Part shown: positions 23,697-24,763 of the stretch, piece by piece
Numbering within the stretch: the stretch's first letter is position 1
Layout of the letters: every line of letters begins with the position of its first letter
Sequence record: NC_054910.1
Strand: one strand, 5' to 3'
From: Escherichia phage EcNP1
DNA length: 64,000 bases
Program-made: the position numbers and the translations under genes
Notes under the pieces: model-generated
The model's database searches: none
What the model was told of the DNA's origin: nothing
Seen by the model: only the letters and a program-made list of their open reading frames with translations

Positions 23697-24557
23697 TTAC
23701 ACCGCCATTTTTCCTTTAATAGGAGGGTGTGATTCGTAACCTTTAAGAACGAAATCTTTAGGCCTGAGTTTAAGAACATATTCCAATTGTTCTTTAGTAG
23801 AAAGATAGCGGAATTTATAAGGCAATCCGCCTATTACCAGTTCACAAAGCTCTTTAGGTTCACGACGCAAAATTTCTTTACATTGTTCTACGTGATTCAT
23901 ATAAATATGAGTATTACCGCCAGAAAATATCAAATCTCCTGGAATAAGATTACACATCTTAGCTACAATATGAACTAATGCAGCATATGATGCAATATTA
24001 AATGGAAGACCGAGGAAAACATCTACCGAACGTTGATACCACTGCAAATCCAAATAGCCATTACGCACATTAAACTGATAGAACATATGACAAGGCGGTA
24101 ATGCCATATATTTAAGTTCAGCTGGATTCCATGCAGAAACAATTTGACGCCTATCATTTGGTAGTTTTTTAATACGATCAACAACTTCTATAATTTGGTC
24201 TACACCGCCAAAATCACGCCATTGTTTTCCATAAATTGGACCAAGTTCACCACTATGATATCCTAAATCTTTTGCTTGATTTTCGTAATTTTCATCCCAG
24301 ACTGTTTTGCCTTGAATTAATGAATCATGTTGAATTAATCGCAAATCATTGACATTTATGCTTCCCGATAAAAACCAAAGGAGCTCAGCAATGCAAGCTT
24401 TCCAGGCGAGCTTCTTAGTTGTTACTGCAGGAAAACCTTTACTTAAATCCCAGCGCAATTTAGTACCAAACAAAGCAATTGTTCCTGTGCCTGTTCGGTC
24501 ATCGGTTTCGTAACCATTTTCCAGGATATCTTTAATTAAAAATTGGTATTGTTTCAT
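23697..24557 (-). CDS. td: thymidylate synthase (intronless)
   Basis: 286 aa from ATG at 24557 (T4 Td 286 aa, MKQYQ...); catalytic region PPCH present; continuous reading frame. Confidence 0.95.
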   Translation of the reverse strand: MKQYQFLIKDILENGYETDDRTGTGTIALFGTKLRWDLSKGFPAVTTKKLAWKACIAELLWFLSGSINVNDLRLIQHDSLIQGKTVWDENYENQAKDLGYHSGELGPIYGKQWRDFGGVDQIIEVVDRIKKLPNDRRQIVSAWNPAELKYMALPPCHMFYQFNVRNGYLDLQWYQRSVDVFLGLPFNIASYAALVHIVAKMCNLIPGDLIFSGGNTHIYMNHVEQCKEILRREPKELCELVIGGLPYKFRYLSTKEQLEYVLKLRPKDFVLKGYESHPPIKGKMAV

Positions 24558-24763
24558 TAGTTCATCCAAGAATATGTAGAAGGATATTTGGCAAAGTTAG
24601 GCTTATATCCTAATTTAACCATTTGTTTTGCTTTGCGAGTAAATCCTAAAGAACGCTCACCTTTAAGATATTGTTTTGGTGTCATAGGCCCTTGATGCAT
24701 CTGCCGGCAAATAAAAAGAGCCATAGCATTAGGAACATCCTTAACTTTTAATTTATTGCTCAT
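24557..24763 (-). CDS. small basic protein (68 aa) between frd and td
   Basis: Track ORF; ATGA overlap with frd stop and TAATG overlap with td start; Lys/Arg rich. Confidence 0.5.

Follow-up and report, generated by a model that had tools for sequence, protein, structure and literature searches.

A 68-codon accessory gene of the phrog_9550 family between frd and td of a T4-like phage, at a junction that differs among close relatives

The hyperplastic regions of T4-type phages contain PeSL mobile cassettes, which are bounded by an early promoter and a stem-loop terminator (Arbiol et al. 2010, PMC2839356; Comeau et al. 2014, PMC4122927). In T4 itself (NC_000866), frd lies at 145109-145690 and td ends at 145112, so that the two genes overlap by 4 nt and there is no gene between them. 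Other relatives of T4, such as T2, T6, RB14 and RB32, carry RB32ORF229c, a gene for a protein of 115 aa that belongs to phrog_1928.

The DNA analyzed here is a stretch of 64,000 nt from Escherichia phage EcNP1 (NC_054910.1), referred to below as the window. It is a segment of a Tequatrovirus genome, and at 23600-25400 it shares 99.8% identity with Escherichia phage vB_EcoM_Nami. A preliminary description of this DNA had stated that frd and td are directly adjacent in T4, which the T4 record confirms, and had pointed to an extra Lys/Arg-rich ORF of 68 aa placed between the two genes and overlapping both of them. This ORF was found again in the ORF listing, its composition agrees with that description, and both overlaps were verified by reading the sequence.

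The three genes are encoded on the minus strand. The upstream neighbor is frd (24760-25341; dihydrofolate reductase, 193 aa), whose TGA stop overlaps the ATG of the 68-codon ORF in an ATGA tetranucleotide at 24760-24763. The ORF occupies 24557-24763 with its TAA stop, which in turn overlaps the ATG of the downstream neighbor td (23697-24557; thymidylate synthase, 286 aa) in a TAATG at 24555-24559, read on the reverse complement. Aligned with T4, the junction shows an exact 204-bp indel, ATGA[GC...CTA]ATGA, with ATGA at both bounds, and the overlap with frd is its upstream edge. Over its final 30 nt, frd of the window is 100% identical to T4 frd, and the GC content of the ORF (35.3%) equals that of the genome.

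Concerning the surrounding region, mobile elements that are present in T4 are missing here. The td gene is intronless and does not contain I-TevI, nrdB (19654-20823) is a single ORF of 389 aa with no intron or I-TevIII, and the nrdB-nrdA spacer (20824-20874) has only 51 nt, without mobE or nrdB.1. Moreover, two minus-strand ORFs that are absent from T4 are located between frd and frd.1. The first (25341-25586, 81 aa) overlaps the frd start, belongs to phrog_3183 and corresponds to RB32ORF231c of T2, and the second (25595-25930, 111 aa) matches the Pfam family DUF7247 (E 1.5e-43).

The profile search proposed in the preliminary description assigned the 68-aa protein to phrog_9550 through a full-length match (E 1.3e-45, residues 1-68 on positions 1-68 of 68). 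The features in common with distant members of this family are a basic N-terminus, Arg20, Lys34, Gly40, Met48 and an L-G-Y-x-P motif at residues 51-55. Homologues were detected by tblastn in 236 phage records, with amino-acid identities of 98.5% in Dhakavirus JS98, 81% in Marfavirus, 68% in Kanagawavirus, 60% in Serratia phage 4S and about 43% in Phapecoctavirus. The family is spread over at least five T4-like lineages (the first four of these and Tequatrovirus) in addition to Phapecoctavirus. In the T4-like lineages examined, the protein has a steady length of 66-70 aa, and its N-terminus, MSNKLKV, is invariant in the family alignment, which supports the 68-codon reading. Furthermore, dN/dS values of 0.12-0.17 (Nei-Gojobori) were obtained against four homologues, those of JS98, Marfa and CIP9, which represent three other T4-like genera, and that of the unclassified Serratia phage 4S. 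In the same comparison, frd is in a comparable range with 0.14-0.23, and td has 0.05. Judging from these comparisons, the ORF is a genuine protein-coding gene and not a chance frame.

The opposite reading, in which a spacer or RNA element has no coding role, is open by chance and is conserved through constraint on the RNA, would explain why the nucleotide identity between Tequatrovirus and Dhakavirus reaches 97-99% with synonymous sites included. Nevertheless, dS rises to 1.0-1.9 in the comparisons with Marfa, CIP9 and 4S, although the protein is preserved, and homologues with 43% amino-acid identity are present in Phapecoctavirus. The predicted RNA folding was no better than that of shuffled sequence, both at the junction (z = +0.13) and over the whole ORF (z = +1.1). 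Rfam gave no significant match between 22000 and 27000 and none inside the ORF, the sole weak match being about 2 kb away. The substitution pattern refutes the non-coding reading, which we regard as barely credible.

The gene is already known as an uncharacterized accessory phage gene, since more than 100 sequenced relatives of T4 carry it and T4 does not. The window holds one more copy of phrog_9550, with no difference from the described members: vB_EcoM_Nami, ACG-C40, pSs-1, fPS-90, JS98 and Marfa have theirs in the same position between frd and td, and many deposited phages encode the same protein with 100% identity. The identical protein is found on 332 contigs and is labeled as a hypothetical protein in all of them except two, one that reads "DUF4858" (Shinka, MZ502379) and one that reads "flagellar biosynthesis protein" (PYPS2T, NC_054944). 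The first label is unsupported, as an hmmscan of Pfam-A gave no match at E <= 10, and with regard to the second, the protein matches no Pfam or NCBIfam family. The annotation of the gene is also inconsistent: it is missing from the JS98 record (EF469154), and in ACG-C40 (NC_019399) and IME339 it appears as a 42-aa truncation from an internal Met. In the IMG/VR contig IMGVR_UViG_2938479101_000007 (893-1097), the copy is split into two overlapping tblastn segments, residues 1-32 and 16-68, which points to a short duplication within the gene or to a frameshift and is similar to the 73-aa variant P0009. Pfam, NCBIfam, PDB and the literature contain no entry for phrog_9550, and the literature searched (ORFs between frd and td, RB32ORF229c and the PHROG identifiers) contained nothing on the 68-aa gene.

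A comparison of the junction across T-even genomes, as the preliminary description had proposed, revealed three states. The query represented an empty site and was made of 246 nt from the 3' end of frd and 250 nt from the 5' end of td. It matched 554 phage records, and the spans were read in 60 of them, chosen to be spread over the set. An empty junction, with a span of about 494 nt, is present in T4 and a small number of other phages. The span is about 700 nt in Nami, EPIMAM01, PYps5T, D5505 and SHFML-26, which carry the 68-aa ORF, and about 908 nt in T2, T6, RB5, RB14, RB18, RB32 and many more, which carry RB32ORF229c. Both inserts together were found in none of the 60 sampled records. At an identity of at least 90%, tblastn retrieved RB32ORF229c in 363 records and the 68-aa ORF in 133, which leaves roughly a tenth with the empty junction of the T4 type. 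Among the close relatives of T4, then, about two-thirds have RB32ORF229c, about one-quarter have the 68-aa ORF and about one-tenth are empty. In terms of sequence comparison, the gene is a dispensable accessory gene and the junction is polymorphic. The ORF is in fact absent from T4, as had been described, but the word "extra" is misleading: it looked so because the reference was T4, whose state at this junction is the minority one.

RB32ORF229c is unrelated to the 68-aa protein (BLASTP E = 12), but both are found at the same junction with the same two flanking genes, and both are dispensable. The differences are the length of 115 aa and the way it is joined to its neighbors, with spacers of 20 nt to frd and 45 nt to td instead of overlaps. 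In T2 (locus positions 1767-2159), the gene is followed by the 45-nt spacer, which contains TTAGCTTCA-N12-TATAAT just before td and looks like a T4 middle promoter of the MotA type. One GenBank record names RB32ORF229c "putative homing endonuclease"; the protein has no Pfam match.

In more distant T4-like phages, both families can occur in tandem. Marfavirus, Kanagawavirus, Serratia phage 4S and related IMG/VR contigs present the order frd, phrog_1928 (one or two copies), 68-aa ORF and td. In CIP9, two tandem copies of phrog_1928 lie between frd and the 68-aa ORF (locus positions 1826-2504). In Marfa, frd is followed by a 126-nt spacer (locus positions 2017-2142) with a putative degenerate fragment of a second phrog_1928 copy, ...GRFVKHGSKLYFSPEHEK, which was read by eye in the DNA. 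Regarding IMG/VR, a scan with the exact pattern found three JS98-like contigs only, and a profile search for related loci returned nine loci, all with known gene context.

In every T4-like locus examined, from Tequatrovirus, Dhakavirus, Marfavirus, Kanagawavirus and Serratia phage 4S to IMG/VR contigs, and whatever lies upstream, the 68-aa ORF adjoins td by a stop/start overlap, of 1 nt in JS98, Marfa and 4S and of 4 nt in CIP9. This constant contact could indicate a role linked to td rather than a general role in host interaction. The protein would then serve thymidylate synthase, or the phage complex that synthesizes dNTPs, as an accessory partner or regulator and be kept in a fixed ratio with td by coupling, and the Shine-Dalgarno-like sequence of td that lies inside the 3' end of the ORF fits with this. 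On the other hand, T4, T2 and T6 have a functional td without the ORF, and the adjacency in T4-like genomes may simply be inherited gene order. Outside these phages, the homologues of Phapecoctavirus and of two metagenomic phage contigs are found among runs of small unknown genes, a layout typical of early regions, and no td, frd or phrog_1928 is present in their flanks of 3-4 kb. A conserved partnership with phrog_1928 outside the T4-like phages was likewise negative on testing. A dedicated partner of thymidylate synthase is, overall, improbable.

The history of the ORF is different from that of the genes around it. Between the window and JS98, the ORF has 98.6% nucleotide identity and a dS of 0.05, while frd has 79% and a dS of 1.06, and td 76% and a dS of 2.6. 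The same is observed between the Tequatrovirus and Dhakavirus copies, where the ORF is 97-99% and the frd and td flanks are only 73-79% identical, and among three Dhakaviruses, where the ORF is 98-99% identical and the flanks 84-94%. The patch of high identity starts a few bases before the ATG of the ORF and ends about 45-55 nt into td. In fact, the first 54 nt of td (24504-24557, minus strand) have a history in common with the ORF: they are 96-98% identical to those of JS98 (L018) and of a second Dhakavirus (L020) and 91% identical to those of a third (L019), compared with 85-87% for T4 and T2, and the remainder of td shows the reverse pattern. Synonymous sites of the ORF are free to vary, since its dS against Marfa is about 1, and the near-identity is thus better explained by recent spread than by constraint on the RNA, with which the negative folding results agree. 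At the sequence level, this indicates a recent lateral exchange of the ORF and the first ~54 nt of td between Tequatrovirus and Dhakavirus. The ORF behaves as a precise cassette at a polymorphic junction, being gained, lost or replaced exactly at the start/stop overlaps.

Such a spread raises the question of what the gene offers to its carriers. It could be a counter-defense or host-takeover factor under ongoing selection that neutralizes a component of host immunity or housekeeping, a benefit that would explain how the cassette spread nearly unaltered across two genera. This reading overlaps with the one favored here. A dS of 0.05 between genera whose flanking genes are saturated is what recent selective spread would leave, and the patchy presence and absence among close relatives and the homologues of unrelated large virulent phages, in runs of small unknown genes of the early-region type, point in the same direction. 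Moreover, the most variable site among copies with at least 90% identity is residue 26 (codon 24686-24688), in the loop that joins helices 1 and 2 of the predicted structure, where Pro (15 variants), Arg (5) and His (1) are found, and Tyr, Ser, Asn or Glu in distant members. This could be due to diversifying selection or merely to a tolerant loop, and a variability of 6 in 21 variants is modest. No likeness to characterized anti-defense proteins was found in Pfam, PDB or BFVD, and none in the literature searched. Many well-characterized anti-restriction proteins that mimic DNA are acidic, and the 68-aa protein is, in contrast, strongly basic. PADLOC gave no match for four members of the family, although its models describe defense and not counter-defense proteins. 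With these data, a counter-defense or takeover role is possible but doubtful. The narrower proposal that the ORF and the first ~54 nt of td form a selectively favored cassette, for instance for counter-defense, that swept recently through Tequatrovirus and Dhakavirus by recombination exactly at the start/stop overlaps, and that acts in Tequatrovirus as an allele, a functional alternative to the unrelated RB32ORF229c, is unlikely.

The preliminary description had also considered that the ORF might be a remnant of a mobile insertion, that is, a decayed free-standing homing endonuclease or its DNA-binding domain. Some observations seem to agree with this: two conserved genes flank a hotspot of insertion here, the other cassette found there has been labeled a putative homing endonuclease in the record mentioned above, and the ORF is transferred along with the first ~54 nt of td, a pattern superficially like co-conversion. 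However, the ORF is not decayed. It is full-length and conserved in several lineages, with the constant length and low dN/dS already given, and its confident structural model predicts a self-contained fold. Searches with 30 family members gave no match to GIY-YIG, HNH or any other family of Pfam or NCBIfam, so neither a nuclease nor a DNA-binding domain of the endonuclease type was identified. A profile search of all six-frame ORFs found no paralogue in the window, and the phage does not have the td intron, the nrdB intron or mobE. A link of the ORF with the td intron and I-TevI was also rejected, as phages with and without the intron each occur with and without the ORF. The remnant reading is largely refuted, and we consider it very improbable.

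Returning to the favored reading, a coupled accessory gene, the preliminary description had argued from the overlaps that the ORF is expressed. This argument is reinforced by marks of an expressed gene in the sequence, namely purifying selection and the upstream region. T4 td is expressed from the region preceding its ATG, and the 30 nt before the ATG of the ORF are identical to the 30 nt before the ATG of td in T4. What the ORF has inherited is thus, presumably, the translation-initiation region of T4 td. At the other end, the conserved codons of Trp66 and Met67 (TGGATG) supply a GGATG (24563-24567, minus strand) placed 6-10 nt before the td ATG. A scan revealed no promoter-like or terminator-like sites at or inside 24557-24763. 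The ORF lies inside the frd-td operon of the cluster of nucleotide-precursor genes, with which it would be transcribed, and is probably translated by coupling behind frd, with its ATG in the ATGA context and behind the 30 nt that belong to td in T4. Its 3' end would then provide td with a Shine-Dalgarno-like sequence (GGATG) and a TAATG restart, and ribosomes would be handed on to td. From the overlaps, the upstream 30 nt and the GGATG, we infer both the translation of the ORF and the continued coupling of td.

The product is a protein of 7.9 kDa with 10 Lys, 3 Arg, 1 Asp and 1 Glu, a pI of 10.3 and a net charge of about +11. AlphaFold performed poorly with 14 close sequences (pLDDT 56.6), but with 30 diverse sequences it produced a model with a pLDDT of 86.3 and helices at residues 13-24, 29-39 and 43-49, followed by a C-terminal tail that is extended and contains many conserved aromatic residues. 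The protein is accordingly predicted to be a compact, self-contained small three-helix fold. Foldseek searches with this model gave four matches in PDB, all of them enoyl-CoA hydratases with E > 3, and none in BFVD at E <= 0.001. As neither database contains a similar fold at E <= 0.001, the model is not recognizably a helix-turn-helix or another known fold, and no DNA-binding structure resembling it was found, with the consideration that Foldseek statistics are weaker for small domains.

Sequence searches against Pfam (E <= 10, with 30 family members), NCBIfam and PDB (single sequence and profile) gave nothing usable either. A profile search of 1.8 billion representative proteins retrieved 11 clusters at 50% identity, of which 10 are small and one, a 1402-aa repeat protein (P0026), looks spurious as a family member. 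A second, word-indexed search brought the family up to 40 proteins, and this small family carries no annotation hinting at a function.

Taking all this together, the 68-codon ORF is moderately probable to be, as a whole statement, a dispensable accessory gene of phrog_9550, coupled to its neighbors and mobile as a cassette, whose basic helical product binds a nucleic acid or a partner. The part that concerns the gene and the cassette is near certain. The part that concerns binding is tentative, with the chances below even: the basic protein would most likely bind nucleic acid or an acidic partner of the host or the phage, early or midway through infection, and it would give a conditional, host-dependent advantage instead of an essential function. 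Binding of nucleic acid is compatible with the charge of the predicted protein, and it is on the charge that this idea is based, as Foldseek gave no DNA- or RNA-binding fold.

The gene itself matters little, since well over 100 deposited genomes of T4 relatives already contain it under the name of hypothetical protein. What it illustrates is that T4 represents the minority, empty state of a junction with three states, and that a comparison with T4 only makes common accessory genes seem novel. Moreover, the cassette is a clean natural case of gene-precise gain, loss and transfer between genera in a coupled operon, without PeSL boundaries. A small protein with a confident model, no structural relatives and signs of recent spread is also a cheap candidate for tests of an accessory, possibly counter-defense, function.

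Compared with the PeSL cassettes, the gene is similar in being a small non-essential ORF that close relatives gain, lose or replace and that is transferred laterally. It does not belong to that class: no sigma-70-like early promoter or stem-loop terminator accompanies 24557-24763, the ORF has no promoter-like or terminator-like site in its flanks or interior, and the RNA of the junction is predicted to be unfolded. Its boundaries are instead the ATGA overlap on one side and, on the other, a conserved stretch that reaches ~54 nt into td. With respect to the frd-td overlap of T4, the tetranucleotide is the same and so are the 30 nt upstream, with the ORF occupying the place of td behind frd. The difference is that here a second overlap, TAATG, ties the ORF to td, and the operon would therefore contain three coupled cistrons where that of T4 has two.
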